54,798 bases of DNA from Candidatus Dojkabacteria bacterium. GTDB lineage: Bacteria; Patescibacteriota; Dojkabacteria; JAFGLO01. The position numbers and the translations under genes were made by a program. Positions 2,880 to 31,449 of the stretch are shown one piece after another; the first letter of the stretch is position 1; each line of letters begins with the position of its first letter. The stretch is from the NCBI GenBank assembly GCA_035371485.1, contig DAOOWV010000002.1:1-54798 (forward strand), read 5' to 3'. The notes below the pieces were generated by a model that was given only the letters and a program-made list of their open reading frames with translations, searched no databases and was not told the origin of the DNA.

Positions 2880-3046
2880 GCGCTTGTAGTCCCGACAGAC
2901 CACAACGGTAGTTGTAATGGTCTAGTCGAGGATCCTCACACCATATGATTAATAAGGAAAGTGGTGTGGGACTCAATTGGATACGCATCCGCCTCTGGCG
3001 GAGAGCAGACCTTTCTAACGATAGGACTGCTGAATATTGAAAAGAT
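2880..3046 (+). other. tRNA-Arg-like 5' portion (acceptor 5' strand, D arm, UCU-like anticodon context) interrupted by structured inserts
   Basis: Three blocks match the intact tRNA. GCGCTTGTAG (2880-2889), CTCAATTGGATA (2972-2983) and GAGCAG (3003-3008) are identical to 3047-3056, 3057-3068 and 3069-3074. They are separated by an 82-nt self-complementary insert and the hairpin TCCGCC-TCT-GGCGGA. A stem GCAGACC/GGACTGC follows, with a loop that begins TTTCTAA. Confidence 0.5.
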
Positions 3047-3120
3047 GCGCTTGTAGCTCAATTGGATAGAGCAGTCCCGTCCTAAGGGAAAGGTTGGAGG
3101 TTCGATTCCTCCCAAGCGTA
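3047..3120 (+). tRNA. tRNA-Arg (anticodon CCT)
   Basis: Cloverleaf folded by hand. Acceptor GCGCTTG/CAAGCGT (G1.U72). D arm GCTC-AATTGGATA-GAGC. Anticodon arm GTCCC-GTCCTAA-GGGAA. T arm GGAGG-TTCGATT-CCTCC. Discriminator A, and no encoded CCA. Confidence 0.85.
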
Positions 3121-3219
3121 ATGCAGATGTGGAATCGTCTTTCGTGGGAGGTTACCGCCAAAGGCGGATTAGACACTTGAGTTTTGTAAGAGTCTAGCGA
3201 TTCCTCCCAAGGCGTAAAG
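3121..3219 (+). other. tRNA-Arg-like 3' portion (T arm plus acceptor 3' strand) with a 44-nt insert in the T loop
   Basis: GGGAGG-TT (3146-3153), then insert 3154-3197 (hairpins CCGCC-AAA-GGCGG and TAGACACTT/AAGAGTCTA), then CGATTCCTCCCAAG (3198-3211, identical to 3103-3116), then GCGTA. Confidence 0.5.
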
Positions 3220-3254
3220 AAAAAACTGTTTCATATAATTTATTAATCAATAAA

Positions 3255-3656
3255 ATGAAGGATTGGAAAGAAAATTTTAATAAAACCAACCAAAAAGGAA
3301 GTGTTCTAAAAGATACCCCCAGGGGTAAAATGTATATCAGCACTCCAGATGAAATTATGTCTGTAATAAAAGAAATTCCCAAGGGGAAGATTATCAGCAC
3401 AAAAGATATAGCACAACAACTGGCCAAAAAGCATAAAGCCGATTACACATGTGGATTAACAATAGGTATTTTTGTTGCGATTATCGCAAATTATGTCGAA
3501 CAGGAAAAAATAAAAGATGTTCCATATTGGAGAGTAGTCAAAGGCAAAGGAGTTTTGTATGAAAGTTACCTCAGAGAGCCATCAAAACAAGAACAGTATC
3601 TTAAATTAGAAGGACATAAAATAGAAAAGGGGAAGATCGTAAATGCTAGATTATAA
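3255..3656 (+). CDS. MGMT-family / alkyltransferase-like DNA-binding protein (no active-site Cys)
   Basis: IPKGKIISTKDIAQQL...VPYWRVVKGKG resembles the MGMT DNA-binding domain, but the PCHR cysteine is replaced (PYWR). Confidence 0.55.
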   Translation: MKDWKENFNKTNQKGSVLKDTPRGKMYISTPDEIMSVIKEIPKGKIISTKDIAQQLAKKHKADYTCGLTIGIFVAIIANYVEQEKIKDVPYWRVVKGKGVLYESYLREPSKQEQYLKLEGHKIEKGKIVNARL

Positions 3657-3660
3657 AAAT

Positions 3661-3737
3661 TGAGAATTTTAGATTTTGAATTCTGAATTATCGAAAAGTA
3701 AGATAATTTAAAATCTAAAATTCATAATTTATAATTT
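3661..3737. repeat. Heptamer arrays (tNtGAAT type and ATAATTT type) containing a perfect 14-bp inverted repeat
   Basis: Units are tgagaat tttagat tttgaat tctgaat ... ataattt aaaatct aaaattc ataattt ataattt. gaattttagatttt (3664-3677) is the exact reverse complement of aaaatctaaaattc (3710-3723). Confidence 0.8.
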
Positions 3738-3818
3738 CTTAGGGTTACTTTTTTTTCATAAATCACGTATACTTTATTTATAGGTCTTGGTTTTCTTATT
3801 TATTTTTTATTTAATAAT

Positions 3819-4589
3819 ATGGAAAATAAAGCTAAATTCACTACAATTGCTCTTGCAATCCTCCTTATATTATTTATAGGCTACTCAGCATACGCTACTT
3901 ACACAATTATCGACCTTAGGAACGATTTAAAGAACATTGAAAATACAGCTAACACAAAAGATGATAATCAAATCGAAAGCGAAAGTACATCCAATTCAAA
4001 CACAAGTGAAAAAACGCTAAAAGAGTATATTCATCCCTTATATCCAGAGGTTAAAATTAAATATGATAACAGTTGGAAACTAGAAATAAAAGAAGAGGAA
4101 TTTACTATGTCTGTATTTTCTTCAGAATTTGATTCTATTGGAACGAAAACTTCAGTTAAAAATGTATTGATAGAATTAGAAAAAGACTCTACTAAAATCA
4201 AGTTTCACATGTCTCCCTCAATGATGTATGGTAGCGAATGTTCAGGATTCTTTTATACTAAGGAGGAGAAATCAATCAATCAATTAGAAAATGGATGGTT
4301 TAGAATTGAATCAGACACAGGATATGATTACATCAGAAATGCAGTATTTCATGGAACAGAAGATTACGAAACATTTGCTGAATGTGCACTATGGCAAAAT
4401 CAAAACGCTGACGATTATGATTTTGGTATATACGATGATGCAGGTACAGTCGTAACAGAATATAATCACGAGGGATTACTTGGTTTACTCTATATTACAA
4501 TTGAAGTTAATTCTGACAATGATTCTGAGTTATTAAAAGAAGCTGATGAAATAGTAACTCAATCTTCATATGGCTTTTACATTAAGTAA
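3819..4589 (+). CDS. Membrane-anchored hypothetical protein
   Basis: Long ORF with one N-terminal TM helix (FTTIALAILLILFIGYSAYATYTII) and an acidic extracytoplasmic body. No family recognised. Confidence 0.6.
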   Translation: MENKAKFTTIALAILLILFIGYSAYATYTIIDLRNDLKNIENTANTKDDNQIESESTSNSNTSEKTLKEYIHPLYPEVKIKYDNSWKLEIKEEEFTMSVFSSEFDSIGTKTSVKNVLIELEKDSTKIKFHMSPSMMYGSECSGFFYTKEEKSINQLENGWFRIESDTGYDYIRNAVFHGTEDYETFAECALWQNQNADDYDFGIYDDAGTVVTEYNHEGLLGLLYITIEVNSDNDSELLKEADEIVTQSSYGFYIK

Positions 4590-4641
4590 AATTGTAATAT
4601 ATAATTTTCTTTGTTCTTTATTAATTATTATTTAAATAAAA

Positions 4642-5163
4642 ATGGAAAACAAATCAGAAGCACTAAAAAAACTGCTTAAGGTCGGGGTTGAAATTGCCAG
4701 CTTGGCTTTTGTTGCCTTTGGTGCTTTTTCTGATAAGGTTAGAAGGGAGATTTTCGAAAGGGATAAGGGAACTTGCCAACGCTGTGGGAGGAGGTTTAAA
4801 GATGGTTGGATGTTGCAATGTTCGCATTTTGATCATGAAAGAAATGAAGGATATGACGATCCGGAGAATGGACAACTGGAATGCATAAGGTGTCATATGG
4901 CTAATCATTTATCGCAGATGGGCAGTTGGGGAGATGAACATTATAGAGCGGTTGTATTATTAGCTGGTCTTGTAATGAGGGAGGGATATCATACGTGGAA
5001 ATGGTACTTGGAAAATCCAGCCCGCGCCGAAGTGCAAAAGCAAGAGGATATTTCAGATATGTTTGAATTATTTGGTAGAAATGGTTATAATGCTTGGGAT
5101 TTTATAGATAATGATAATGAACAAAGTTATGTCAACAGAAGATTGGTACTTAAAAAGTATTGA
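4642..5163 (+). CDS. HNH nuclease-domain protein with N-terminal hydrophobic helix
   Basis: CQRCGRRF...CSHFDHERNEGYDDPENGQLECIRCHMANH matches the HNH/zinc-finger motif pattern. Confidence 0.6.
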   Translation: MENKSEALKKLLKVGVEIASLAFVAFGAFSDKVRREIFERDKGTCQRCGRRFKDGWMLQCSHFDHERNEGYDDPENGQLECIRCHMANHLSQMGSWGDEHYRAVVLLAGLVMREGYHTWKWYLENPARAEVQKQEDISDMFELFGRNGYNAWDFIDNDNEQSYVNRRLVLKKY

Positions 5164-5945
5164 AACAGACGTGGAATATCTAAACCCAGAATTATATCAA
5201 GATATGCTCAAAACCACCGATGTTACCGTTGCAATTCATAATGCAACTGAGATTACCTTCACAATGGCAACACAGATATTTTGTTGCAAAAAATTTACAG
5301 AAACATTTGGGGACCATGGGGGAGTGATCCCGAATGTTTTAATGATAATGAAATCAATATTGTTTTAAATCCTACAAATACAAGTTATGGTATAGCTAGA
5401 GTTTCTTTCCCAGACTTAATAAATAAGGATTTAACAAATCCTCTGTTTCTGAAGAACACATTTTCTACTATATTATTGATGGAAATAAAACGTATTGTAC
5501 CGATCTAGGATTTGATTATCATTTTGGACCCACAGGAGTAAATGAATACATTAAAAATAAATACGAAGTAATAATAAATGGTGTAAATGACGAAGATAGA
5601 ATCAAAGAAGCAGATGAATTCTTCAAGCAATATTTTGAACTAAATATTGAAAGCACTAATGACAATAATGGTGATACAAATAATTCCCTATTTTATTCAT
5701 ACGAAGGAGAACGAAATGACCTCGGAGATAACACAACTTGGTTAGTATTTAAATACACAAAAGATTCAACTGCATTGGAAAACCTACTTGACAAAAATAG
5801 ACAAACTGAATTTCCCGCATTAGCAAATTTGCAAATTGGCGACAAGTTCATAATAAAATACGATAATATTAACTGCTTAGCCGGAGCAGGAACAGGCTAT
5901 TGTAGGCTATTAACCGAAAATCTTACATTCCCAAAAGTAGAGTAG
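5129..5945 (+). pseudogene. Frameshifted gene of unknown function (three consecutive reading frames)
   Basis: Coding-like sequence continues from frame 2 (5129-5368) into frame 1 (to 5508). It then moves into frame 0 (about 5427-5945, no canonical start). The first junction lies at an A6 run near 5285. Confidence 0.5.
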
Positions 5946-6054
5946 TCATATTTTTCACAACATGCTAAAATCCTCTACAAGTTATGCAAGTTAAAAGTTA
6001 ACAAGCGAACTAGTGAGCAAATGTTGAATTCATGATTATTACTTCTATAAGTTC

Positions 6055-6103
6055 ATATTACTTGTTACTTATTACTTGTTACTTATTACTTATTACTTAG
6101 TTA
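6055..6103. repeat. Heptamer array TTRTTAC x6 directly upstream of thyA
   Basis: atattac ttgttac ttattac ttgttac ttattac ttattac ttagtta. The track ORF start at 6076 (TTG) lies inside this array. Confidence 0.8.
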
Positions 6104-6105
6104 AT

Positions 6106-6918
6106 ATGCAACAATACCTTGATCTTATCAAACATGTTTTGGAAAATGGACGCACTAAAGCTAATCGCTCTGGTTTCTGGGTAAGAAGTGAATTTGGTCA
6201 TATGTCACGTTATGATCTTACAGAAGGATTTCCGCTTGTAACTACTAAAAGAATGCCACAAAAAGTATGGATTCATGAATTACTTTGGTGGATTTCAGGT
6301 GATTGTACAAATACAAAAACATTAAAAGATAGGCTCCCAAAAGATAAAATTAAGATATGGGATATTTTTGCTGATGATGAAGGAAATATTGGTCCACTTT
6401 ACGGCTTCCAATGGCGTAATTGGCCTGGATATGATGGTAAACCAATAGATCAACTTCAAAATGTTATTAATCTTCTTAATGATGATCCTAACTCAAGAGC
6501 AATGATTGTAAGTGCATGGAATGCTGGACAATTAAAAGAAATGCGACTTCCACCATGTCACACCTTTTTTCAATTTTACGCTAGAAAAGACGAACTGAGC
6601 ATGATGATGTATCAACGATCAGGAGATATATTAATAGGAGTACCCTTTAATATTGCTCAATATTCACTTTTACTTATGATGGTAGCACAAGTTACTGGAT
6701 ATAAGGCAAAGGAGTTTATACATGTAATAGGGGATGCTCATATTTATAAAAACTATAAAGAACAAGCATTGGAGCAAATTGGAAGAAAGCCATATCCACT
6801 CCCTAAAATGATATTAAATCCTAAGGTAAAAAATATAGATGATTTCAAAATTGATGATTTCAAAATTGAAAATTACCAGCATCATCCTCCAATTAACATG
6901 AATGTGAATTTAGTATAA
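6106..6918 (+). CDS. thyA: Thymidylate synthase
   Basis: Colinear with classical ThyA from MQQYLDLIKHVLENG through FPLVTTKR, HELLWW, PPCHTFFQFY, YQRSGD and PFNIAQYS. The start is taken at ATG 6106 rather than the track TTG at 6076. Confidence 0.95.
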   Translation: MQQYLDLIKHVLENGRTKANRSGFWVRSEFGHMSRYDLTEGFPLVTTKRMPQKVWIHELLWWISGDCTNTKTLKDRLPKDKIKIWDIFADDEGNIGPLYGFQWRNWPGYDGKPIDQLQNVINLLNDDPNSRAMIVSAWNAGQLKEMRLPPCHTFFQFYARKDELSMMMYQRSGDILIGVPFNIAQYSLLLMMVAQVTGYKAKEFIHVIGDAHIYKNYKEQALEQIGRKPYPLPKMILNPKVKNIDDFKIDDFKIENYQHHPPINMNVNLV

Positions 6919-6934
6919 CTAACTTAGTATAGCC

Positions 6935-7456
6935 ATGATAGAACTAATAGTTTCAATTTCAGAAAACAATGCTATTGGGAAGAAGAATAATCTCCCATGG
7001 AAACTAAAATCCGATCTTTCCCATTTTACCCAAATATCCAAAGGAAGATTACTTGTTATGGGAAAAAATAATTATTTATCCATGAAGGCAATTTATGACA
7101 AAAAGTATCCCAGTCAAAATAGATTTATGGGACTAAATAGAACTGCACTGGTATTAAGTGATACACCTATTGAAAACCCTCCCAAAAACGTTCAGATAGT
7201 AAATTCATTTGATAAAGCACTAATAATTGCCCAAAAAAGAAATGGACTCATTATCGGAGGAGGAATGATATACAAGCTTTTTTTGCAGTTTGTTGATAAA
7301 ATGTATATAACAAAAGTACATACCACAGTAAAGGATGCTGATGTATTTTTCCCAGAGATCAATGAAGCAGAGTGGGAAATCAAAAAGATATCCGAACAGA
7401 AGAAGGATAAAAACAACGAATACGGATTTTCAATCCTTGAGTATACTAGAATTTAA
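6935..7456 (+). CDS. folA: Dihydrofolate reductase
   Basis: The N-terminus IVSISENNAIGKKNNLPWKLKSDLSHF and IIGGGMIY match DHFR motifs. The gene sits immediately downstream of thyA. Confidence 0.85.
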   Translation: MIELIVSISENNAIGKKNNLPWKLKSDLSHFTQISKGRLLVMGKNNYLSMKAIYDKKYPSQNRFMGLNRTALVLSDTPIENPPKNVQIVNSFDKALIIAQKRNGLIIGGGMIYKLFLQFVDKMYITKVHTTVKDADVFFPEINEAEWEIKKISEQKKDKNNEYGFSILEYTRI

Positions 7457-7561
7457 ATAATAGGTGATACATGAGATATGTTGGGATTTTTAAATTTTGA
7501 ACTCAAAATCTTTCTCATATATCACTTATCAAGTATCATTTAATTTAAATTTAAATAAACG

Positions 7562-7726
7562 ATGGCAAATGATGATTTAGTCAAAAATCTCAAAAAAATG
7601 GAAGAATCTGGATATTTCAAGGAAGATATGAAAATTGATCCAGGAAGTTTTTCACTTGACGGATTAATAGATGATGATGAAGAATCTAAAAAGAAAGGAA
7701 AACCTAATAAGAATTGTAATAAATAG
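7562..7726 (+). CDS. Small acidic hypothetical protein (54 aa)
   Basis: ATG-to-TAG ORF MANDDLVKNLKKMEESGYFKEDMKIDPGSFSLDGLIDDDEESKKKGKPNKNCNK fills the gap before the GT gene. It is below the track length cutoff. Confidence 0.35.
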   Translation: MANDDLVKNLKKMEESGYFKEDMKIDPGSFSLDGLIDDDEESKKKGKPNKNCNK

Positions 7727-7732
7727 CACTTC

Positions 7733-8854
7733 ATGAAAGTTGGTATTTTAATACCGCACCTTTTTGCCCAAGATGCACTCAAAGACAAAGTAATTTTTGC
7801 ACCTCTTACACTTGCAGAAAAGCTAACTAATAGCCTAGTAGATAGAGGACACGAAGTAACTGTTTTCACACCAGGAAGATTAACAACTAAAGCTCAAAAT
7901 GTTAATGTTGATCTGTCATTAATAGAAGAGGAAATAAGATTAGCTGAATGTACTTTACCTCAATTTATCGTCCAAAACCCTGTTGCATTTATTACAATGT
8001 CACGACAAGTTCACACAGAGTTAACAGTAAAAGCACTTCAGTTCTTGAAAGAAGGTAAAATTGACTTACTTCATGTATACATGTGTGAAGATGAAAACCC
8101 GCTATATTTCTCACAACTAATTGATAAACCCGTAATTTTTACACATCACGATCCGTTTAACTACTATCGTAAATATAGAGTACGTTTTCCCCAATTAAAA
8201 AGCTTAAATTACGTTTCAATCTCTTATGCACAAAGGAAAACGGCTCCAGAAGGACTAAATTTTTGTGAAAACATATATAATGGTGTTGACGAACAAGAAT
8301 ATGCTTTTAGCGAAAAAACGGATGATTATTTCGCATCTTTAGGGCGAATAGTTCAAAACAAAGGAGTACATATTGCAATCGATTGTTGTGAAAAATTGGG
8401 ATATAAGTTAAAAATAGCAGGAAAACACTATTCAAACTCAGACGATAAAGATGGGGGATACTGGGAAAAATATATTGAACCACATATTGACAACAAATTA
8501 ATTAAATATGAAGGTTTTCTTAAACCGCCTTATGAAACCAATAAATTTCTAAAAAAGACGAAAGCATTGTTATTTCCCATTGAATGGGATGAACCATTTG
8601 GATTGGTAATGGTTGAATCATTAATGTCTGGAACTCCGGTTATAGCTTTTGACAATGGATCAGTAAGAGAAATTATTGAACATGAAAAAAATGGATTCAT
8701 TGTGAAAACAAAGGAAGAAATGATAAAAGCCATGCAAAAGATTAACTCAATAGATAGAAAATATTGTAGACAATCGGTAATCCCCAGGTTTACAATCAAA
8801 ACTATGGTTGAAAAATATGAGAAACTCTACAAACAAATGGTAAATTATACGTGA
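7733..8854 (+). CDS. Glycosyltransferase, GT4/GT1 family
   Basis: C-terminal EWDEPFGLVMVESLMSGTPVIAFDNGSVREIIEHEKNGFIV is the retaining GT-B (EX7E) signature. Confidence 0.85.
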   Translation: MKVGILIPHLFAQDALKDKVIFAPLTLAEKLTNSLVDRGHEVTVFTPGRLTTKAQNVNVDLSLIEEEIRLAECTLPQFIVQNPVAFITMSRQVHTELTVKALQFLKEGKIDLLHVYMCEDENPLYFSQLIDKPVIFTHHDPFNYYRKYRVRFPQLKSLNYVSISYAQRKTAPEGLNFCENIYNGVDEQEYAFSEKTDDYFASLGRIVQNKGVHIAIDCCEKLGYKLKIAGKHYSNSDDKDGGYWEKYIEPHIDNKLIKYEGFLKPPYETNKFLKKTKALLFPIEWDEPFGLVMVESLMSGTPVIAFDNGSVREIIEHEKNGFIVKTKEEMIKAMQKINSIDRKYCRQSVIPRFTIKTMVEKYEKLYKQMVNYT

Positions 8855-8898
8855 TAAATGAGAAATATTAAAAATAATAAGTTAAATTTATTCAAATA

Positions 8899-8926
8899 CT
8901 TATCATATATCATCTATCATTTAGCA
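8899..8926. repeat. Heptamer array NTATCAN x3-4 across a stop codon
   Basis: cttatca tatatca tctatca tttagca. Confidence 0.6.
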
Positions 8927-9971
8927 CTTGATAAACATCACTATTTGAATATTCATCAAGATAGATAACACATCTTATTCCTGCTTCCTTTATAATCCTT
9001 GCACACACAGAGCATGGGCATTTTGTAACCCAAAGAATGGCCTTACTTAAGTCATAACCTAATTTTAAAGCATTAATAATTGCATGCACTTCAGCATGAA
9101 CCGACTCCATAAGCTCAGCATTCTTTCCTAGTTCTGAAAATTCTTTTTCCCTGCGTGCGCCATGATACAAAGTATAACCCTCCCAAGGAGAAATCTTATT
9201 CTGACCAAAAGCAATAATCTTCAATTCACCTTCTTTTGAAAACTCATTTTTAACATAATTCAAATTCCATACTCCATCAATCTGCTTTTCATTTTTCACT
9301 TTTCGTTTTTCACTTTTATAAGTTAGACAAGCTCCCGTTTTCCCGGTCCAATCCCATGATAAATTTTTTACATCATTACAAAAATCTATTATTTGATCTA
9401 TAGAAAATAAATTATCACCTTCGATAGTCAAGTTGTCTGTATTTACAGATTTCCATTTGTTATTAAGCCTTTTATAGTTCTGAATATTAACAGCTTTTAC
9501 ATATTTCTTGACCTCATCTTCGACAATAAAAGGGGAGTGAGTGATAACCTCAATATCATTTTTAATACACTCCCAATATACTGAATTATAATGCAAAATC
9601 CCGGCCCATGAACCATAAAAACCTATCATTCTGGTTGGTTTAAATTCACGAAGAACAAATTTTACATCATTTTGAGAATATGTAAGATGAATCAATAAGT
9701 TCTGATATTTACTATTAATTGATTCCAATATATTATTAACTTGAGCAAAATCCATCTTCCTAAACTGTTCACCGTCCTCCAACCCACTTACATAATTCTC
9801 AACAAGATCACCAATAATTACCAAACGATTTTTCTTTACTTCCTTCAAAATAATTTCCTTAAGTTTTAACACATTTACATAAGCCATACCCAAGATAAAA
9901 CTCTTATCAGTAACACTTCGAATATATTGCTTTTGTTTTTCAGAAAGCTTATTCCAACTTAAATGGACCAT
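8910..9971 (-). CDS. CDA-fold (dCMP/cytidine deaminase-type) zinc deaminase with a long N-terminal extension
   Basis: C-terminal SVHAEVHAIINA...CPCSVCARIIKEAGIRCVIY carries the HAE and PCxxC zinc motifs. The preceding roughly 180-270 aa match nothing I recognise. Confidence 0.7.
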   Translation of the reverse strand: MVHLSWNKLSEKQKQYIRSVTDKSFILGMAYVNVLKLKEIILKEVKKNRLVIIGDLVENYVSGLEDGEQFRKMDFAQVNNILESINSKYQNLLIHLTYSQNDVKFVLREFKPTRMIGFYGSWAGILHYNSVYWECIKNDIEVITHSPFIVEDEVKKYVKAVNIQNYKRLNNKWKSVNTDNLTIEGDNLFSIDQIIDFCNDVKNLSWDWTGKTGACLTYKSEKRKVKNEKQIDGVWNLNYVKNEFSKEGELKIIAFGQNKISPWEGYTLYHGARREKEFSELGKNAELMESVHAEVHAIINALKLGYDLSKAILWVTKCPCSVCARIIKEAGIRCVIYLDEYSNSDVYQVLNDR

Positions 9972-10035
9972 AATTTAGAAATTTTAAATTTTAAATGTTG
10001 AAATTTAAATTGTTCACTCGTTAACTTTTAACCTG

Positions 10036-10572: not shown

Positions 10573-10610
10573 TCAAACTAATTAACAATTAATAGTTAAA
10601 TTTTTCTTAT

Positions 10611-10659
10611 CCGTTCACTCGTTCATTTGTTAGTTCGTTCATTCGTTCACTTTTTCATT
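10611..10659. repeat. Short-period (7-8 nt) CGTTCAYT array
   Basis: cgttca recurs at 10612, 10620, 10636 and 10644. Hairpins CAACC-GAA-GGTTG (10661-10673) and CCAGCC/GGCTGG (10675-10680 / 10703-10708) follow. Confidence 0.6.
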
Positions 10660-10715
10660 TCAACCGAAGGTTGACCAGCCTTACTTTTTAAAAATATAGG
10701 AGGGCTGGCATTTGT

Positions 10716-11303: not shown

Positions 11304-11420
11304 AAAAGTAAGTTCTCAATTTAATTGTGGGGGTATTATATATGATTATCAAAAAAAATGCTCAATGCTAAGTAAGATAGAAGATGGTAGTGTATAGTTA
11401 TTAAATAGTAGGCGGTATGC

Positions 11421-11462
11421 AGTAATCAGTGATTGGTTATTAGTGATTAGTGATCAGTTATT
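11421..11462. repeat. Heptamer array AGTRATY x6
   Basis: agtaatc agtgatt ggttatt agtgatt agtgatc agttatt, preceded by the core GGTATGCAGTA (11414-11424). Confidence 0.8.
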
Positions 11463-11573
11463 AGATTTATTTTGGTTTTTCATTTCTGATAATAAGTCAC
11501 TACCCTCAAATCAATATTTTCACACTTCGCTACTTACCACTTACAGCATACTGCATACCAACCATTGTATCCC

Positions 11574-11594
11574 TTATCACATATCACCTATCAC
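11574..11594. repeat. Heptamer array NTATCAC x3
   Basis: ttatcac atatcac ctatcac, directly after the stop of the kinase gene. It is the reverse-complement type of the 11421 array. Confidence 0.7.
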
Positions 11595-11600
11595 TTAATT

Positions 11601-23913: not shown

Positions 23914-23922
23914 GAAAGGACG

Positions 23923-24954
23923 TTAATTAAAATTGAGACCTTCATTATGCCTATGTTGTGCATTAAGTCCAAGGTGCTTGTACCCCAAATCTGTTACAAC
24001 CCTCCCTCTATGTGTACGCTGAATCAATCCAGCCTTAATTAGAAATGGCTCAACAACATCAGATAATGTTGATTTATCCTCAGCTACTGCAGATGCCAAT
24101 GTTGATAAACCTACTGGACCTCCATCAAAAGAATTAATCATAATTTGAAGAATTTTTCTATCGAGATCATCTAATCCAAACTCATCTATTCCCAATGTAT
24201 CTAAAGCCTTGAGAGCAACTTGTTTCGTTATTACTTTACTGGCAACATCATCCATCATATCTCTAACTCTTCTCAAAAGTCTCACTGCAACCCTTCCTGT
24301 ACCCCTAGAACGCTTTGCAATCTCAACAGCAGCTTGTTCATCAATATTAACACCAAGAACCCCAGAAGCACGCAAAATTATGCTTACTAAATCATCGATA
24401 TTAAAAAAGTCTAAATGTAATAAAATGCCAAATCTATCTCTCAATGGTGGAGATAGTAAACTAAGTCGAGTAGTAGCACCAATTAAAGTGAATGGCGGAA
24501 GTGATAATCTCATTGATTTTGCCCCTACTCCCTTTCCAACAACGATATCGAGAGCAAAATCTTCCATTGCTGGATACAATATTTCCTCAACATTTTTATT
24601 GAGTCTATGTATCTCATCAATAAAAAGAATATCTCCTTCTTTCAAATTTGAAACAATTGCGGCTAAGTCACCTTGTCTTTCAATTGCTGGTCCTGATGTA
24701 ATTTTAACGGTAACACCAAGTTCTTTCGCAACAACAAAAGCAAAAGTAGTTTTTCCTAATCCAGGTGGACCATAAAACAAAATATGATCTAATGGCTCAT
24801 TTCTCTTTTTAGCTCCATTAATAGCCATTTTTATAATCTTTTTCTCACGCTTTCGACCAATTAAGGAATCCAATGAGTCAGGTCGTATCTTGATATCACC
24901 ATCAGAATCCATTCTTGAAACGTTAACATTTTTAACATCAGCATTTTTAGACAT
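23923..24954 (-). CDS. ruvB: Holliday junction branch migration ATPase RuvB
   Basis: Walker A GPPGLGKTT, ILFIDEIHRL, and a RuvB winged-helix C-terminus (FLIKAGLIQRTHRGRV). Confidence 0.95.
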   Translation of the reverse strand: MSKNADVKNVNVSRMDSDGDIKIRPDSLDSLIGRKREKKIIKMAINGAKKRNEPLDHILFYGPPGLGKTTFAFVVAKELGVTVKITSGPAIERQGDLAAIVSNLKEGDILFIDEIHRLNKNVEEILYPAMEDFALDIVVGKGVGAKSMRLSLPPFTLIGATTRLSLLSPPLRDRFGILLHLDFFNIDDLVSIILRASGVLGVNIDEQAAVEIAKRSRGTGRVAVRLLRRVRDMMDDVASKVITKQVALKALDTLGIDEFGLDDLDRKILQIMINSFDGGPVGLSTLASAVAEDKSTLSDVVEPFLIKAGLIQRTHRGRVVTDLGYKHLGLNAQHRHNEGLNFN

Positions 24955-25528
24955 TTGACAAGCAAACTTTAATTAAATCCTCAACAGAATCATTTAATAA
25001 TTTTTGAACCTCTATGTTTTTTATCATTTTATTGACTTCAAACTCCCCAAAGCCCAAACTTTTCATCGCATTTTTTAGCTCATTTATCTTTTCATTATCT
25101 GCACCACTTGAATCTATTGTTACTAATTTCCCAGCTAATTCAACAATTATTCTTTGTGCTCCTTTCTTCCCTACTCCTTTTACCGCACATAGTCTCGACA
25201 CATCACCGGCCTCAGTTATAGTAACAAACTCTTCAAAAGGATAGCTGTTCATTATATCAAGTGCTGTTGTTGGTCCAACTCCAGATACTGTCAATAATTT
25301 CTCAAAATACATAACATCATTCAAATCAATAAATCCAAATAATTCCTCTTTATTTTCACGAATATGATGATAAAGATTTAATTCGACTTCAGAATTTATT
25401 GGCGAACTGTCCAAATCTCTAAAAAGCATAAAAACGGCATATCCCACCCCAGAATTAGTTGCCACAACAGAGAAATTTCTTCCCTTTCTTATTATATTTC
25501 CTTTTATCCAAGCATACACTTTTTTCAA
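24947..25528 (-). CDS. ruvA: Holliday junction DNA-binding protein RuvA
   Basis: HhH motifs VSGVGPTTALDIM and VKGVGKKGAQRII. TTG start. It overlaps ruvB by 8 nt. Confidence 0.9.
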   Translation of the reverse strand: MKKVYAWIKGNIIRKGRNFSVVATNSGVGYAVFMLFRDLDSSPINSEVELNLYHHIRENKEELFGFIDLNDVMYFEKLLTVSGVGPTTALDIMNSYPFEEFVTITEAGDVSRLCAVKGVGKKGAQRIIVELAGKLVTIDSSGADNEKINELKNAMKSLGFGEFEVNKMIKNIEVQKLLNDSVEDLIKVCLSNV

Positions 25529-25589
25529 TTAACAATTAATAACTAATAATTAACAAATGATTATTAGTCCGTTCACTTTTAACTCATTA
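25527..25589. repeat. Heptamer array AATTAAC/AACTAAT type, then CTTTTAA type
   Basis: aattaac aattaat aactaat aattaac aaatgat tattagt ccgttca cttttaa ctcatta, between ruvC and ruvA. Confidence 0.7.
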
Positions 25590-25590
25590 A

Positions 25591-26070
25591 CTAGTCCCTA
25601 TTGTACCCTCTAGCAGTAATATAAGCAATTGCCAGCGCATCTGCATGATCATCAGGTTGAGGAATAAAATCTAGGTTAAGAACAAGTTTTACAACTGCTT
25701 GTATTTGTTCTTTACTGGAGTTTCCATACCCCGTAACCATCATCTTCATTTCATTTGGGGTATATTCAATAATCGGGATATCATATTTACCTCCTATCAT
25801 CAGGACAACTCCCCTTGCTTCTCCTGTAATAATTGCATTCTTTACATTTTTGGCGAAAAATACCTTTTCTAAACCGATAAGTTTTATTTTATACTTTAAA
25901 ATTATCTTTTCTAATTCAGTAAAAATCTCCCAATATCTTATAGAATTTTCAACTCCTGATTTTGTTGTTATACATCCTCCATCAACCCATACTACATTAT
26001 TATCCTTATCCAGTTTAACGACTCCCCATCCCATTCTTGAAATACCTGGATCAATTCCTAAAATATACAC
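25591..26070 (-). CDS. ruvC: Crossover junction endodeoxyribonuclease RuvC
   Basis: ILGIDPGISRMGWGVV N-terminus and DDHADALAIA C-terminal acidic motif. Confidence 0.9.
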   Translation of the reverse strand: MYILGIDPGISRMGWGVVKLDKDNNVVWVDGGCITTKSGVENSIRYWEIFTELEKIILKYKIKLIGLEKVFFAKNVKNAIITGEARGVVLMIGGKYDIPIIEYTPNEMKMMVTGYGNSSKEQIQAVVKLVLNLDFIPQPDDHADALAIAYITARGYNRD

Positions 26071-26107
26071 CTTTTTATAATTAATAGTTAATAGTTTAGC
26101 TCAAAAA

Positions 26108-26836
26108 TTATTCTCTGTCCTCCAAAATGGCATTGTGCCAAACATTCAAGACATCATCTAAATCCTCGATTTCATCAATCAATTTAATGAAAGAATCTTT
26201 ATCATTTACTTCAACGCCTTCTTTAGATTTATAAACTAAGCCTGCCGAAACCACTTCTATTCCTAACTTTTCTATTTCCTCTCGAACCTTTTGTACCTTA
26301 TCAGGCTGGGACGTTATAGTTAATCCCTCATCAAATTCTTCAATATCAACTACACCAATAATGTCCAAAAGTTTCTCAAATTTTTCATCAGTTGTATTTA
26401 TATTGATAATTTTTATCTCACCCACTCTATTAAACTGCCAAAGCACAGAACCACTTGAAGATAATTCCGCTCCATTTTTCCTCAAAGCCATTCTTAATTC
26501 AGCAACAGTTCTATTTTTATTATCTGTCAAACATTCAATTAGTAAAGCTACCCCACCAGAAAAATAGCCTTCATATAGTATTCTTTCGAGTGTACCATCT
26601 TTTCCACTTCCTAAACCTTTTGCAATTGCATTTTCAATACTTGATAATGGCATTTTAGCAAATTTAGCTCTATCGACAACAGATCTTAATTGATAATTGA
26701 AATTTACATCTCCACCCCCACCTTCTTTTACAGCAAGGGAAATTTCTTTAGATAATTTGGAAAAACTTTTTCCCTTCTGTGCATCATTTGCTTCTTTTTT
26801 ATGTTTTATTTTTGACCACTTCGAATGTCCTGACAT
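26108..26836 (-). CDS. yebC: YebC/PmpR family transcriptional regulator
   Basis: MSGHSKWSKIKHKK is the canonical YebC N-terminus. The track ORF starts two codons earlier, at 26842. Confidence 0.9.
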   Translation of the reverse strand: MSGHSKWSKIKHKKEANDAQKGKSFSKLSKEISLAVKEGGGGDVNFNYQLRSVVDRAKFAKMPLSSIENAIAKGLGSGKDGTLERILYEGYFSGGVALLIECLTDNKNRTVAELRMALRKNGAELSSSGSVLWQFNRVGEIKIININTTDEKFEKLLDIIGVVDIEEFDEGLTITSQPDKVQKVREEIEKLGIEVVSAGLVYKSKEGVEVNDKDSFIKLIDEIEDLDDVLNVWHNAILEDRE

Positions 26837-26857
26837 TTTCAAAACAATTAATTAATT

Positions 26858-27940
26858 CTATAACTGTTTTTCACACAGTACTATCACAATATCTCCCGTT
26901 GCAACAAATTCAGGACGATTATATATCATTTTTATGTTATTTCCAAATCTTTTATCTATTATTTCTACAACCTCGGTTAAGCTTTCTTTATATTTTTCTT
27001 GGTCTACAACATAGATCATGTTTCCCGAACAACTTTCTAAAACCATCAAAGGTGCGTTTTCAGCCCTAACAACAACAAGCCCTAAATTCTTAAACCATCG
27101 AGATAACCTCATACCCTCACCAGTAATATTTGAGGCATTATATATCTCAATCTGAGCCTGTTCCAACAATAAATTTTCATAAATTTCAAGCGATCGTAAT
27201 AAGTCGTTCCATTGTTCAGTTTCCACGTATTCATAAACACGCCCTGCTTCAATATCCTCTCCATCACCCATTGGACTTATTTTCTTTTCTATGACATTAT
27301 ATTCATTTAACTTATTTCGCAATGAAACAACTTGTGATGGTGAGGCTGTTGAATAAATTTGACCAGTAACTTTTTTGATTTCGGATCCATTAACTAATAC
27401 ATTTTTCCAATTCAAATCAAATACTGCATCATTAAGAGTATTAATTTCTAACTTATCGCGAGAATATACTATTGGGGGTATAATTATTACTTGATCAATT
27501 CTATATGACATTATTTCTTCAACATACCATTTTATTGATTCAAGATAATTATTTGATTCATTAATAGTTGAAGATCTTATCAAAATATCACTAACCCTTA
27601 TAACGTTTCTTTTATTATATTTCGTATTATCCTCAAGTAAAAGATCTTTATCTAAATTAATTTCATATACCCTTTTAAAACTATCAGACACTAGAACTAT
27701 TCTTAATTTTTCTATTAAGGCTACTTCCAACTCGGGATTATTTACTTCTACAAATAACCAAGCTTGTTCTTTTGTACTTATGTTTTCACACAAATATTTC
27801 TGTGAAAACTCGAATTTAAAAGTCTTAAACTTAATATAATTATATAAAATAACAAAAAATAAACTCAAGGTAGCGATGAGTAATATATACTTCACTATTT
27901 TTATTAATGAGGGTCTTTTCATAGTGTTCAATCGTACCAT
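26858..27940 (-). CDS. Membrane-anchored protein with LytR_C-like C-terminal domain
   Basis: N-terminal TM helix. The C-terminal IEIYNASNITGEGMRLSRWFKNLGLVVVRAENAP resembles the LytR cell-envelope C-terminal domain. Confidence 0.5.
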   Translation of the reverse strand: MVRLNTMKRPSLIKIVKYILLIATLSLFFVILYNYIKFKTFKFEFSQKYLCENISTKEQAWLFVEVNNPELEVALIEKLRIVLVSDSFKRVYEINLDKDLLLEDNTKYNKRNVIRVSDILIRSSTINESNNYLESIKWYVEEIMSYRIDQVIIIPPIVYSRDKLEINTLNDAVFDLNWKNVLVNGSEIKKVTGQIYSTASPSQVVSLRNKLNEYNVIEKKISPMGDGEDIEAGRVYEYVETEQWNDLLRSLEIYENLLLEQAQIEIYNASNITGEGMRLSRWFKNLGLVVVRAENAPLMVLESCSGNMIYVVDQEKYKESLTEVVEIIDKRFGNNIKMIYNRPEFVATGDIVIVLCEKQL

Positions 27941-28283
27941 CCAAGATAAGTTTTTGCAATTCTCAACCTAATTTCTTATTAATTATATCACATACCAACA
28001 TCATTTGTTTCAACACAATCTTAATTTTCAAAGAAAACACGCCACTTCACATTTTACATTAATTTTACTAAAAGAATCACCACACAACACAATGTTCACA
28101 AACGTAACACACAAACCTTTTTGTAATCTATTGCCTTTTATCAAACATTTTCATCCAAATTCTTTTTGCGTTGATTAGAAAAACACTTCCCACCCGGAAC
28201 GTAACTTAATCGTAACATAAAACCAGACTCTGTTTTCGTTCGGCCACAAAAATACGAAAAAGAAAGCAACAATACTATATCGT

Positions 28284-29411
28284 TCACTTGTTTGGATGAA
28301 AATAAGCTCTAATTTTAACGGAATGCAAGCCAGTTGTTGGTCCACCATCTTCAACTGTTTCAAAACTACCATATTCATTAATTACCATTTTTTGTTCAGC
28401 AACCAAATATTGAGTAGGAATTTCTAAATACATCGCAAAAGAGTGTAGAAACATCCCCTCACCATCTCTTAAACCGTTTTTGCCGTATATAGGATCATTA
28501 AATATAGGAAACCCTATTTCCTTAAGAGTAGCTCTTATTTGATGAGTACGTCCGGTAACTAATTTAATTAAAAAAATCACCTTGTTTTCACCACGATACA
28601 TTGGAATTAACTCAAGCACCGCTGATTTGGCACGACTTGAAAAAGAAATATTTCTTTTTTCAAGTACAAAACGAAAAGAATCCCTCCCTTTTCTAAAAAT
28701 AAAACCATTAATTAAGTAATGGTTTTTATTTATTACTTTCACTCCTTCAATCGTTTTATTATTAAATTCAAGGTTATTATATTGTGAAGGATCAAATTCT
28801 TTAGTAATTTGTGAAAACATATCAGTAATGTTCTTACATACGTCAATATTTTTTACGTCGATGTAGTTATTATTGAGGTTACTAATTTCTGACAAAGCAA
28901 GATAATATTTACTGATTCTTCTCTTCTCAAAAAGTAATGCTAAATAGTCTGTAAGTAATCTATTTTTGGATACAATAACAATTCCGCTAGTATCTTTATC
29001 TAAACGATGAACAACACCCAAATCTCTATAACTTGTATTTTCTGAATATTTCTTATTTGGAAAAACATTCTGAATTAAAGTTCCTGTATAAACACCTGCG
29101 CCTGGATGCATAACCATACCAACTTTTTTATTTAATACAGTAAAGTTTGAATTCTCATAAATAATGTTTAACTTTGATTTATTATTCTCACTAGAATTTT
29201 GATTATTAAAAGGAAAAAGCAATTTATTCAAAATTACAAAATCAAATTGAATTTCTTCATTACCCTCAAGTAAGTGCGAAGGCTTAGAAATCTTAACTTT
29301 ATTAACCTTTACTCCACCATTCTTAATATAATTAATAACAGCTTCCCTACTAATTTCCTTTGTTTGCAATTTTTCCTTCAATATAGGAAGAATATACTTA
29401 TCAGCTCTCAT
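28284..29411 (-). CDS. RluA-family 23S rRNA pseudouridine synthase (RluD-like, with S4 domain)
   Basis: HRLDKDTSGIVIVSKN catalytic Asp motif and GRTHQIRATLKEIGFPIFNDPIYG. Confidence 0.85.
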   Translation of the reverse strand: MRADKYILPILKEKLQTKEISREAVINYIKNGGVKVNKVKISKPSHLLEGNEEIQFDFVILNKLLFPFNNQNSSENNKSKLNIIYENSNFTVLNKKVGMVMHPGAGVYTGTLIQNVFPNKKYSENTSYRDLGVVHRLDKDTSGIVIVSKNRLLTDYLALLFEKRRISKYYLALSEISNLNNNYIDVKNIDVCKNITDMFSQITKEFDPSQYNNLEFNNKTIEGVKVINKNHYLINGFIFRKGRDSFRFVLEKRNISFSSRAKSAVLELIPMYRGENKVIFLIKLVTGRTHQIRATLKEIGFPIFNDPIYGKNGLRDGEGMFLHSFAMYLEIPTQYLVAEQKMVINEYGSFETVEDGGPTTGLHSVKIRAYFHPNK

Positions 29412-30176
29412 TTATTTCCAATCCTTCATTCTAATATCTACTGGGGTACTATCATCCTTAATTTTACTTACTTCAACAATTAAAAAGATGTTCCAAACAA
29501 CAAATGCTATTAGAAATACAAATATATAAATGAAATCAAGGTGTTCAATATTAAAAATATAAGTCAATATAGCTAAAATAAAAAACAAAAACAAGTTCGA
29601 AATCTGAATATAACGGATTCTTGGCCTATTTTTTCTATTTACAATAGTATAAATAACGTAAGAGACGAGTAAAAGAAATACACATACAAGTATAACAATA
29701 AATCCTATACTCATAGAACTTCTGTTCCACCATGATAATATTCCCATATATAATAAAAGCCAACACATAAAAAATCTGTTAAAAAAATATAGAGATTTTC
29801 TTAATGAAAATTGATATTTCTTTTTAGAAAAACTGACATGTAATAACATCGTAACCATAAGAAGCCACACCAATTCTGTTCCATCCCACAAGTTAATAAA
29901 TTTGTAAGGGAAGAAATTAAACATTTCATTTACTGGAGATCTTATTGAAAATCGCCATTCAATTGCCCCATAATTTCCCAGATGAAATAAGATATAAAGA
30001 GTTCTTCCAATTATTAAAGCAATCAAAAATGAAAAAAGAAGACTATCAAGATATTGATATTTCCTAACATTCTTTGTATTTGTAAATCCAACATATAAAA
30101 CAATAAATGAGAAAAAAAACGCAACAGCCAATGAAATAAGAAGTGCAGAAAAATCTCTACCTCCGACAAAAATCAT
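29412..30176 (-). CDS. Polytopic membrane protein, unknown
   Basis: 254-aa hydrophobic ORF that abuts the rluD-like start with no spacer. Confidence 0.55.
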   Translation of the reverse strand: MIFVGGRDFSALLISLAVAFFFSFIVLYVGFTNTKNVRKYQYLDSLLFSFLIALIIGRTLYILFHLGNYGAIEWRFSIRSPVNEMFNFFPYKFINLWDGTELVWLLMVTMLLHVSFSKKKYQFSLRKSLYFFNRFFMCWLLLYMGILSWWNRSSMSIGFIVILVCVFLLLVSYVIYTIVNRKNRPRIRYIQISNLFLFFILAILTYIFNIEHLDFIYIFVFLIAFVVWNIFLIVEVSKIKDDSTPVDIRMKDWK

Positions 30177-30201
30177 AAAAAAAAGAATTAACTAAACTAC
30201 G

Positions 30202-30912
30202 TCACTTTTTCTTTCCAATACTAGAAAACATCTTCTTCATTTCTTCAACTCCACTCTTTAATCGCTGTTTAAACTTTTCAAAGTTACTTTTTAACTCTTG
30301 CCACATTTTCTTAAACGGTTCTTTAATAAGAATCCTTTTTCTTTCAAGCTTAGAAGTATTTTTTACCTTTTTTACATCATTATTTGCTACAGATGGGATA
30401 GACTTTTCTGTTTCCACTGTTATTTTGTTTTCATTTTTTTTCACTTCAGATTGATCTTCAGGTACAAAAGAATACCCGCATTGTGAACAAAAAGAATTGT
30501 AGTATGGAGAATATGTTCCACATTTAGGACATTGTTTCCTTAGTTTAGATCCACAATATCTGCAAAATATATTTTCAGACTCATTAATTTTTTTACAGTT
30601 ATAACATTCCATTACTGAAAGAGATTCAGAAAATAAAGCTTTTTTCTCTAAATCTATATAATACTTCTCATCAAGGGAATATTTGTTTCTTAAAACCAAA
30701 TACAAAAATAGTCCAATTAAGGGGACCATCCCTATTAAAGTCAATAGTACAATACTCCAGAACTCTTTATACCTTCTACCAGCATCAATTCTAATCCAAA
30801 TTGCAACTAGAATCCATTGTAAAAAAAGTAAAGCAAAGACATAAAACGCAACAACATATATATTCTCAGCTACCCATTCAATACTACTTACGATTATTTT
30901 TTCGTCAATCAT
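30202..30912 (-). CDS. Membrane protein with PLDc_N-like N-terminus and double zinc ribbon
   Basis: WIRIDAGRRYKEFWSIVLLTLIGMVPLIGLFLYLVLR, then CYNCKK...CRYCG...CPKCG...CSQCG. Confidence 0.6.
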   Translation of the reverse strand: MIDEKIIVSSIEWVAENIYVVAFYVFALLFLQWILVAIWIRIDAGRRYKEFWSIVLLTLIGMVPLIGLFLYLVLRNKYSLDEKYYIDLEKKALFSESLSVMECYNCKKINESENIFCRYCGSKLRKQCPKCGTYSPYYNSFCSQCGYSFVPEDQSEVKKNENKITVETEKSIPSVANNDVKKVKNTSKLERKRILIKEPFKKMWQELKSNFEKFKQRLKSGVEEMKKMFSSIGKKK

Positions 30913-31040
30913 TTTATTATTTTATAACTAAAATGTTTTACCAGTAATCACTTTTCGTTCTAAAACAACTCTATTCTAAAAAAAACAATTCCCTGTCGTT
31001 GCTAAAGCTTCAACAGACAAGCCGGCTTGAACGAATTAAC

Positions 31041-31075
31041 TTTTCACCTTTCACTTTTCATTTTTCACTTGTAAT
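31041..31075. repeat. Heptamer array TTTTCAC x4
   Basis: ttttcac ctttcac ttttcat ttttcac ttgtaat. Confidence 0.8.
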
Positions 31076-31076
31076 C

Positions 31077-31159
31077 TGCCGAAGGAGCTCGCACCTTACA
31101 CGAGCTGAACACGAGTTATGTTAACTCGTAATTCTAAAGAAACGATTCCCTCATTCGGC
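31077..31159 (-). other. tRNA-Leu-derived acceptor/T-arm-like element with internal hairpins
   Basis: The minus strand reads GCCGAATGAGGG...[ACGAGTT-AACAT-AACTCGT; AGCTCG-TGTAAGGTG-CGAGCT]...CTCCTTCGGCA. The 16-nt TAATCTGCCGAAGGAG at 31072-31087 exactly repeats 31181-31196, which is the tRNA-Leu 3' end plus flank. Confidence 0.5.
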
Positions 31160-31185
31160 AACCTCTTTTTCTCAACTCAATAATC

Positions 31186-31269
31186 TGCCGAAGGAGGGAA
31201 TCGAACCCTCACCCACTTGCGTGGACGGGATTTTGAGTCCCGCGTGTATACCAATTCCACCACTTCGGC
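31186..31269 (-). tRNA. tRNA-Leu (anticodon CAA), class II
   Basis: Acceptor GCCGAAG/CTTCGGC. D arm with GGAATTGGTATAC. Anticodon arm CGGGA-CTCAAAA-TCCCG. Long variable arm TCCACGCAAGTGGGT. T arm GAGGG-TTCGATT-CCCTC. Discriminator A. Confidence 0.85.
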
Positions 31270-31449
31270 GTGGTTTATTTATTTATTTGTTACGCCTTTG
31301 TGGTGAAAATTTAAGGTGTATACCCTGCCTTGACTTACGTTTCGGCAGATTCACAACCATGTTAGCAACTTCGTTGCTACAGGGTTGGAACAATTCCACC
31401 ACTCCCGCCTGCCTGTCCTTAATTACAATTGTCTGGCGGGCAGGTCGGC
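31270..31449 (-). other. tRNA-Leu-like 5' portion interrupted by two large structured inserts
   Basis: Minus-strand blocks GCCGA (31449-31445), AGTGGTGGAATTG (31403-31391, identical to 31264-31252) and GTATACAC (31323-31316, identical to 31251-31244) keep tRNA order. They are split by a 41-nt GC-rich insert and a 67-nt insert. A degenerate CTTAAAT (UAA-like) segment follows. Confidence 0.5.

Follow-up and report, generated by a model that had tools for sequence, protein, structure and literature searches.

In a stretch of 54,798 nucleotides of Candidatus Dojkabacteria DNA (contig DAOOWV010000002.1; the whole stretch is called here the window), the genes for tRNA-Arg(CCU) and tRNA-Leu(CAA) are each bordered on both sides by pieces of their own sequence, which lie on the same strand, collinear and in tRNA order. 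We find it probable that each of these loci is made of one working tRNA gene together with non-functional relics of the same tRNA family, which were colonised by palindromic insertions. A previous sequence-only reading of this DNA had taken the outer pieces for broken genes of tRNA-Arg(UCU) and tRNA-Leu(UAA), the essential readers of AGA and UUA, whose halves might be joined or act in trans through some processing pathway. Such a split tRNA is not supported by the analysis described here. The DnaB and MGMT-like proteins of the window are those of Candidatus Dojkabacteria (WS6), which belong to the candidate phyla radiation (CPR, Patescibacteria), and an identical MGMT-like protein is found in a Dojkabacteria metagenome-assembled genome (MAG) at NCBI.

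Only three tRNA genes were detected in the whole window by ARAGORN and Rfam (Table 1), and the third one, tRNA-Arg(GCG), has no flanking self-pieces by blastn-short, unlike the other two. The single pieces around tRNA-Arg(CCU) and tRNA-Leu(CAA) match with blastn-short E values of 2e-4 to 0.016, and at both loci they are separated by GC-rich stem-loops. Neither locus is an assembly artefact, since at least 10 independent assemblies obtained with different assemblers agree on both, except for one single-nucleotide polymorphism (SNP) in each. The SNP at 2714 is the sole one of the Arg intergenic region and lies outside the relics; the one at 31158 (G/A, plus strand) affects the acceptor-like strand on the 5′ side of the Leu 3′ unit, where it turns a G-C pair into G.U. 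The 5′ units of both loci fold much better than shuffled sequence (z = -3.3 for Arg and -4.7 for Leu), and their anticodon regions differ from those of the inner genes at about a third of the positions.

In the Arg 3′ relic, the T arm and the 3′ acceptor strand are represented by 3145-3153 and 3198-3216; the T stem begins with a T-to-G substitution, and the acceptor strand is longer by one G. Its T loop is interrupted by a 44-nt insertion (3154-3197) that opens with an ACCGCC-AAA-GGCGGA hairpin. The unit can fold on itself as a minihelix (CGTCTT with AAGGCG, TGGGAGG with CCTCCCA), with a stability no better than that of shuffles (z = -1.5). At the Leu locus, the three upstream pieces (31449-31445, 31404-31391 and 31323-31316) correspond to the acceptor 5′ strand and the D arm, and the anticodon stem has lost its 5′ strand (GCGGGA in the intact gene). 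The heptamer that follows is continued by TTTCA-CCACAAAGGCGT, to be compared with TCCCGTCCACGCAAGTGGGT of the intact gene, a run of C-to-T and G-to-A changes. The sequence-only reading was right about the order of 5′ piece, complete tRNA and 3′ piece on one strand, and its idea of two halves around an insert fits the Leu locus poorly. There, the 3′ piece sits in a self-contained degenerate copy of the tRNA with its own 5′ acceptor strand, so that the locus reads as a tandem row of three units. This own 5′ strand appears as an inverted match of 18 nt (94% complementary) to the 3′ end of tRNA-Leu; a retroviral-type primer-binding site was considered for it and rejected, as the match lacks the CCA complement and is better taken as the 5′ strand of the degenerate copy.

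The broken partners had also been said to carry the anticodon context of UCU and UAA readers. Both heptamers, TTTCTAA and CTTAAAT, are present as strings, and neither of them lies within an anticodon arm with a 5-bp stem and a 7-nt loop; around TTTCTAA, the only helix in the predicted fold has a stem of 7 bp, interrupted by an A.A mismatch, and a loop of 12 nt. Each heptamer is a single C-to-T change at position 34 away from the inner CCU or CAA loop, and the diverged Leu and Arg segments show about 9 GC-to-AT against 1-2 AT-to-GC changes, as counted by reading the alignments. A surplus of GC-to-AT changes of this kind is what unconstrained DNA should show at the 31% GC of the window.

Is a functional tRNA hidden in the outer pieces? 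All their plausible joins were built in silico and each was run through ARAGORN (3135 constructs for Leu and 2229 for Arg). Not one of the 3135 Leu constructs was called a tRNA. For Arg, the anticodon that ARAGORN reports depends on where the arbitrary junction is placed (ct, cta, tct, taa, aaa and others). Of the 743 constructs that end with the true 3′ end, 28 were read as Arg-TCT. This call requires four exact, hand-picked excisions (82, 19, about 120 and 44 nt), and the resulting molecule has an acceptor stem with two G.U pairs and one mismatch, a defective acceptor/T junction with an extra base, and an anticodon stem of four pairs. In the intron and relaxed pseudogene modes, ARAGORN found nothing in the native sequence besides the intact genes. 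Rfam returned no intron or ribozyme match and no group I core over the whole window at the gathering threshold, just tRNA and chance matches over the Arg locus alone (2500-3600) at E<=10, again with no intron, ribozyme or group I core, and only tRNAs in 15 related loci. Among the 51 window open reading frames (ORFs) scanned with Pfam there is no RtcB, splicing endonuclease, RNA ligase, integrase or transposase. No bulge-helix-bulge motif (3-nt bulge, 4-bp helix, 3-nt bulge) was seen at the junctions by eye, no dedicated search for it having been run, and the insertions are self-closing hairpins. To our knowledge, no splicing occurs in bacteria at the D-stem and T-loop positions where the insertions are found.

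Altogether, we give almost no credence to a nested or split tRNA-Arg(UCU) and tRNA-Leu(UAA), in which release of the inner tRNA would yield halves to be ligated or to act in trans in decoding AGA and UUA. In its favour, these are indeed, as the sequence-only reading expected, the most used codons for their amino acids (57% of Arg codons are AGA and 37% of Leu codons are UUA in our tabulation), ARAGORN does accept the excised Arg-TCT cloverleaf, and at the Arg locus and in another CPR locus (L050, see below) the parts of the tRNA covered by the 5′ and 3′ pieces roughly complete one another. Besides the failed Leu assembly, the defective Arg product and the absence of the enzymes from the scanned ORFs, it has against it that the Leu 3′ piece has a local 5′ strand of its own to pair with, that the outer partner is missing in sister genomes, and that the outer anticodons found elsewhere are CAA or AAA. 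If true, it would be the first bacterial split or nested tRNA; its rejection prevents a false annotation of Arg-UCU and Leu-UAA here.

The sister-genome comparison covers the Leu locus only, which lies in a neighbourhood (DnaB followed by tRNA-Leu(CAA)) conserved in CPR. DnaB scans of genomes and metagenomes gave many CPR loci, with relatives of at most 53% identity among the matches listed, and the close sisters were retrieved singly through protein searches. The closest relatives obtained in this way have 71-72% DnaB identity, L167 standing at 72% and L086 at 71%. In L167, a 107-nt spacer holds tRNA-Leu(CAA) alone at the same position, and L086 also has there a bare tRNA-Leu(CAA) without outer pieces. 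A third one of them, L084, carries tRNA-Leu(CAA) with a 3′ module resembling that of the window and no 5′ relic; in this module, a degenerate 5′ strand precedes a GC hairpin, after which the tRNA end is repeated exactly over 17 nt, 7 nt of trailer (TTCATTG) included. The relics are evolutionarily labile and lineage-specific, and an essential function of the outer partner is disfavoured, by the criterion that the sequence-only reading had set itself, because it is missing where the same inner tRNA exists. For the Arg locus, the only close homologue of the upstream gene (YgjP) was found on a contig that ends 19 nt beyond it (L172, SRR13394437_80058). The end of that contig falls within a GATAGAT repeat, at the very point after which the tRNA-Arg locus would be expected, which is consistent with repeat-induced assembly breaks at loci of this kind.

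The same layout occurs in other CPR genomes. In a sample of 170 non-redundant, mostly CPR loci with 62 tRNAs, same-strand flanking self-matches at E<0.02 were found for 12 tRNAs, compared with about 1.2 expected by chance. Their polarity is strict: the 5′ pieces are upstream in eight cases and downstream in none, and the 3′ pieces are downstream in six and upstream in none. On this point the sequence-only reading holds, in that such a recurrence is not explained by random decay. A polarity of this kind matches what partial duplications produce. Among the examples, L050 has pieces on both flanks of a tRNA-Leu(CAA), with an outer anticodon loop that is also CTCAAAA and a perfect palindrome, CTGCCTGCCGGCAGGCAGG, that is present twice, once at the D-loop/D-stem junction and once in the T loop. 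Both flanks are likewise occupied around the tRNA-Glu(CUC) of L063, and 3′ pieces only are seen at L143 and L048 (both Leu-CAA) and at L096 (Glu-CUC). In L119 and L161, positions 1-12 of a tRNA-Lys(UUU), a hairpin and then positions 13-20/23 lie upstream of the intact gene. The L036 locus has a 59-nt 5′ copy of its tRNA-Leu(CAA) with 90% identity and an AAA anticodon, preceding a spacer that resembles the -10 region, and it is a simple tandem duplication of part of the gene. From one lineage to another, the pieces range from 12 nt to full length. A proposed design with a G-ending codon reader inside and an A-ending one outside does not survive this comparison: the layout is not tied to readers of G-ending codons and the outer anticodon is not systematically A-ending, because Lys-UUU and Glu-CUC genes are also flanked and the outer anticodons are CAA (L050) and AAA (L036).

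With regard to the insertions, eight exact GC-rich hairpins were counted in the window, three of which are insertions in the flanks (one Arg, two Leu). Another pairs the Arg T stem with the 3′ relic, one is inside tRNA-Arg(GCG), and the remaining three lie elsewhere (10675, 14608 and 34992). Comparable hairpins are also found outside tRNA contexts. A 42-nt nested GC palindrome of the CCTGCC...GGCAGG type, CCGTGCCTGACCTGCCTGACGTCAGGCACGGCGGCAGGCAGG, occupies a non-tRNA spacer of L175 (about 1895-1945) and is missing from the orthologous spacer (about 1925) of L173, a close Dojkabacteria relative. An identical 24-nt hairpin, TCCGCCTTGGCTCGGCGAGACAGG, is shared by L119 (1999-2022, inside the tRNA-Lys relic) and L007 (about 3338, minus strand), where its context is unrelated and not a tRNA. 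Moreover, a 20-mer palindrome, CCTGCCTGCCGGCAGGCAGG, occurs in L050 (twice), L063 and L143, and also in 35 IMG/VR stretches, whose contigs span 38-68% GC and sometimes hold several copies; in three of these 35 stretches (L186-L220) it lies within tRNA-like sequence (L210, L187 and L217; Table 1). The presence and absence between L175 and L173, the identical 24-mer and the widespread 20-mer argue that the hairpins are insertion elements, and they can be classed as dispersed palindromic mini-elements of the kind of repetitive extragenic palindromes (REP) or of miniature transposable elements with inverted repeats (MITE). An origin of the hairpin arms as inverted local tRNA copies, through template switching, was also tried; it fits one hairpin of L050 (GGCGGA) and does not fit those of the window, L119 or L161.

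Under the explanation that we prefer, a local partial or whole-gene duplication or rearrangement would have left 5′ pieces upstream and 3′ pieces downstream of each gene, and small GC-rich palindromic elements of the REP/MITE type, widespread in CPR, would then have entered these relics. The whole block is probably transcribed from a promoter ahead of the 5′ relic, the relics being leader and trailer; a promoter-like site stands directly upstream of the Leu 5′ relic (Table 1), and a similar placement of a -10 box (TATAAT) is found upstream of the relics in L036 and L050. Only the inner tRNA would be freed, by RNase P and 3′ processing, and the relics would be discarded, the readers of AGA and UUA being presumably encoded elsewhere in the genome.

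Several observations weigh against this explanation. The tRNA-derived pieces of the 5′ relics are identical to the inner tRNAs at 26 of 26 (Leu) and 28 of 28 (Arg) positions, and a uniform neutral decay does not predict complete identity of the pieces next to two large insertions and a diverged anticodon region. When the window is compared with L084, the relic pieces bear the lineage-specific substitutions of their own tRNA, and the same is true for L119 and L161. These two share the insertion site and the hairpin ends, despite a DnaB identity of 64% and the fact that each is nearer to relic-free genomes than to the other, so that they are not sister taxa. The CCGCC-N3-GGCGG motif has just two copies in 55 kb, both in the Arg flanks. 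A spacer that is a copy of the leader is clear in L036 and was not seen in L119, L161 or L050, and those of the window contain 4 nt of trailer (ATTA) and a weak likeness of ATTATTGAG to the leader; outside L036 the spacers do not appear recognisable as leader copies, and simple tandem duplication is not demonstrated for the window. Finally, descent of the Arg relic from a UCU isoacceptor is conceivable, because all the tRNA-Arg genes here share an identical 5′ end of 27 nt, although the relic would not be a working gene now. For the same reason, the identity of the relic to one Arg gene is uninformative about the source isoacceptor. Between tRNA-Arg(CCU) (3047-3073) and tRNA-Arg(GCG) (37105-37131, minus strand), which are identical over these 27 nt, the T arms are almost identical too.

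What relics and insertions by themselves leave unexplained is thus the near-complete identity of the pieces and the presence of a same-site relic in lineages that are not sisters. Possible causes of the identity are an ongoing conversion, selection on the relics, or a site-specific rebuilding of the gene from a copy. It is conceivable, though at a low probability, that CPR hold an undescribed tRNA-centred system, in which hairpins favour D, variable and T loops and tRNA self-copies are actively kept identical to the resident tRNA. The identity would then be maintained either by an element cycle that rebuilds the gene from a templated copy, or by a role in leader and trailer processing. Such a system would explain the complete identity, the tracking of lineage-specific substitutions and the recurrence at the same site in non-sister lineages.

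The first of these two routes corresponds to a more defined scenario, in which the flanks are footprints of a site-specific miniature mobile element that targets tRNA genes. A hairpin element, or an integrase provided in trans, would insert at D-, variable- or T-loop positions, and the gene would be restored by a copy of the displaced part, in the manner of the attachment-site (att) duplications that integrative elements produce. The direct repeats that extend into the trailer point in this direction (16 nt including ATTA in the window, 17 nt in L084), as does the common insertion site and hairpin termini of L119 and L161. The insertion sites found up to now, which show no common target motif, are the D-loop/D-stem junction (window Arg, L050, L217), the 5′ strand of the D stem (L119, L161, window Arg), the T loop (window Arg, L050, L143) and the variable loop (L210), with a single case in the acceptor stem (window Leu). 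The 20-nt palindrome within viral-database tRNA-like sequences could be read in the same way, and so could the translocation, relative to relatives, of a cassette beside tRNA-Arg with MGMT-like, unknown and HNH genes. Nevertheless, the inserts measure only 15-100 nt, the Arg and Leu loci have no common element sequence past short hairpin motifs, no integrase or transposase is among the scanned ORFs, and no distal att repeat was found for either tRNA 3′ end. The sequence-only reading had listed mobile elements on tRNA genes and conversion between tandem copies among its options, and these capture part of the evidence. We regard this scenario as unlikely.

The second route would make of the flanks functional tRNA-like leader and trailer modules kept in register, whose acceptor-like helices act in the maturation of the precursor. 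For instance, a downstream minihelix could be an RNase P cut site that frees the trailer from the terminator, or the hairpins could protect the precursor or guide its folding. The relic pieces, identical to the resident tRNA and co-varying with it across lineages, would be in keeping with such a role, and so would the fold scores of the 5′ units and the fact that both 3′ units can fold alone into an acceptor-like stem stacked on a hairpin. In this line, the Leu 3′ unit keeps an anticodon-arm-like hairpin of 5-7 bp with two pairs changed on both sides, and perfect GC stems persist at 31% GC, with CCGCC-N3-GGCGG confined to the Arg flanks. The modules are missing, however, from the closest relatives with the same tRNA at the same site, the extent of the pieces ranges from 12 nt to full length between lineages, the hairpins are dispersed and also occur outside tRNA contexts, and the fold of the Arg 3′ unit is not above that of shuffles. 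We hold functional modules to be quite unlikely.

Four known systems offer parallels. The tRNA fragments that integrative elements leave behind (van der Gulik et al. 2023, PMC9897764) are also same-strand partial tRNA repeats beside an intact copy, whose 3′ repeats reach or pass the gene end. Here, in contrast, the gap between repeat and gene is of 15-100 nt with no integrase or island in between, 5′ fragments are also present upstream, and the fragments are interrupted by hairpins. An att pair would bound an integrase element, and in the window 77-100 nt separate the repeats, with no integrase and no distal repeat. Like the palindromes of the REP/MITE type (PMC3184786, PMC3733652), the hairpins are small GC-rich stem-loops scattered in many copies; one close relative may have a copy that another lacks, and in some cases unrelated genomes hold identical ones. 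In contrast to that type, no GTAG/CGTC tag was identified, nor any RAYT or IS200/IS605 transposase in the window, and some copies lie within the D, variable or T loop of a tRNA. With the split, multi-intron and permuted tRNAs of archaea (PMC4033280, PMC3218864) the loci share a tRNA broken by intervening sequence at non-canonical positions. They differ from these in the bacterial host, the lack of a canonical cloverleaf and of a splicing endonuclease or RtcB in the window, the lack of conservation in sisters, and the presence, between the pieces, of the same tRNA in intact form. Group I introns interrupt bacterial tRNA-Leu(UAA), tRNA-Arg(CCU) and others (bioRxiv 10.1101/2020.01.27.920355), that is, the same families and near the anticodon loop, whereas no Rfam core is found here and the hairpins of 15-82 nt in D and T regions are too small for self-splicing.

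Relics of tRNA genes and palindromic mini-elements are each known, and no description was found of their combination, in which self-copies have hairpins in their D, variable and T loops, with strict polarity, identity tracking and a wide spread in CPR. A literature search on this palindrome sequence, on CPR tRNA relics and on CPR REPs gave no relevant description. About one in five of the sampled tRNA genes has polar self-copies riddled with hairpins, which makes of this a reproducible CPR pattern. It affects tRNA annotation in MAGs, as such fragments break contigs and can be miscalled, and it bears on the spread of palindromic mini-elements in very small genomes and, possibly, on the processing of tRNA precursors in organisms that have never been cultured.

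Table 1. Coordinates of tRNA genes, relic pieces, insertions and repeats (positions of the window, unless another locus is named)
Feature	Position	Strand	Basis
tRNA-Arg(CCU), intact	3047-3120	+	ARAGORN; Rfam RF00005, 60.8 bits
tRNA-Leu(CAA), intact	31186-31269	-	ARAGORN; Rfam, 62.2 bits
tRNA-Arg(GCG)	37058-37131	-	ARAGORN, Rfam
Arg 5′ relic	2880-3032	+	sequence, blastn-short self-matches, alignment, hairpin search, fold
Arg 5′ relic, tRNA positions 1-10, GCGCTTGTAG	2880-2889	+	
Arg 5′ relic, 82-nt insertion with two hairpins	2890-2971	+	
Arg 5′ relic, tRNA positions 11-22, CTCAATTGGATA	2972-2983	+	
Arg 5′ relic, 19-nt insertion with TCCGCC-TCT-GGCGGA hairpin	2984-3002	+	
Arg 5′ relic, GAGCAG	3003-3008	+	
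Arg 5′ relic, degenerate anticodon region holding TTTCTAA	3012-3018 (TTTCTAA)	+	
Arg 3′ relic	3136-3216	+	sequence, hairpin search, alignment, folds
Arg 3′ piece, CGATTCCTCCCAA(G)GCGTA	3198-3216	+	
Promoter-like site TTGATA-16-TATTAT, upstream of Leu 5′ relic	31486-31459	-	consensus scan, 10/12 matches
Leu 5′ relic	31449-31292	-	sequence, blastn-short self-matches, alignment, GC-hairpin scan, fold
Leu 5′ relic, GCCGA	31449-31445	-	
Leu 5′ relic, 40-nt hairpin CCTGCCCGCC...GGCAGGCGG	31444-31405	-	
Leu 5′ relic, GAGTGGTGGAATTG	31404-31391	-	
Leu 5′ relic, 67-nt insertion with two hairpins	31390-31324	-	
Leu 5′ relic, GTATACAC	31323-31316	-	
Leu 5′ relic, CTTAAAT	31315-31309	-	
Leu 5′ relic, decayed variable-arm sequence	to 31292	-	
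Leu 3′ unit, degenerate full-length tRNA-Leu copy	31160-31072	-	inverted repeat, whole-tRNA alignment, homologous L084 module
Leu 3′ unit, own 5′ acceptor strand TGCCGAAT	31160-31153	-	
Leu 3′ unit, anticodon-arm-like hairpin	31129-31111	-	
Leu 3′ unit, 6-bp GC hairpin where T arm expected	31106-31086	-	
Leu 3′ unit, CTCCTTCGGCAG+ATTA (last 12 nt of tRNA, 4 nt trailer)	31087-31072	-	16-nt exact repeat
L210, CCTGCCTGCCGGCAGGCAGG in variable loop of 92-nt tRNA-Met	2239-2330		
L187, CCTGCCTGCCGGCAGGCAGG in truncated copy of L210's tRNA-Met	about 8570-8650		
L217, CCTGCCTGCCGGCAGGCAGG at D-loop/D-stem junction of tRNA fragment	about 490-560		
Period-7 repeats, examples	2708-2741, 6056-6099, 9285-9317, 11421-11464, 31039-31070		
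Period-7 repeats, further examples	43566-43603, 46021-46191, 47292-47369, 48813-48843		

The genes of the window are ordinary chromosomal ones, such as those for DnaB, RuvABC, SSB, the ribosomal proteins S6 and L9, ThyA and DHFR, and a 1187-aa Laminin_G_3 protein is also encoded. The tRNA-Arg locus is adjoined by the MGMT-like gene, a 256-aa ORF of unknown function and an HNH endonuclease (3255-5163). In the relatives L173 and L175, the MGMT-like cassette (84-86% identity) is placed between Memo and AMMECR1, a position that here lies 40 kb off (43653-45680), and several assemblies break within the HNH gene. A small cassette may have been translocated here, at a hotspot of recombination.

Many intergenic spacers of the window, including those that border both tRNA loci, are occupied by degenerate repeats of period 7 (TAAGTAA, ACTTTTC, AGTGATT and similar), and heptamer runs like these also border the GC palindromes of L175 and of several IMG/VR contigs. 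In L050, two identical tRNA-His genes (860-933 and 1900-1973) are separated by about 1 kb, and a CCGCCAGCTGGCGG palindrome is found at 109 nt from one of the two, which suggests a recent segmental duplication around a tRNA.

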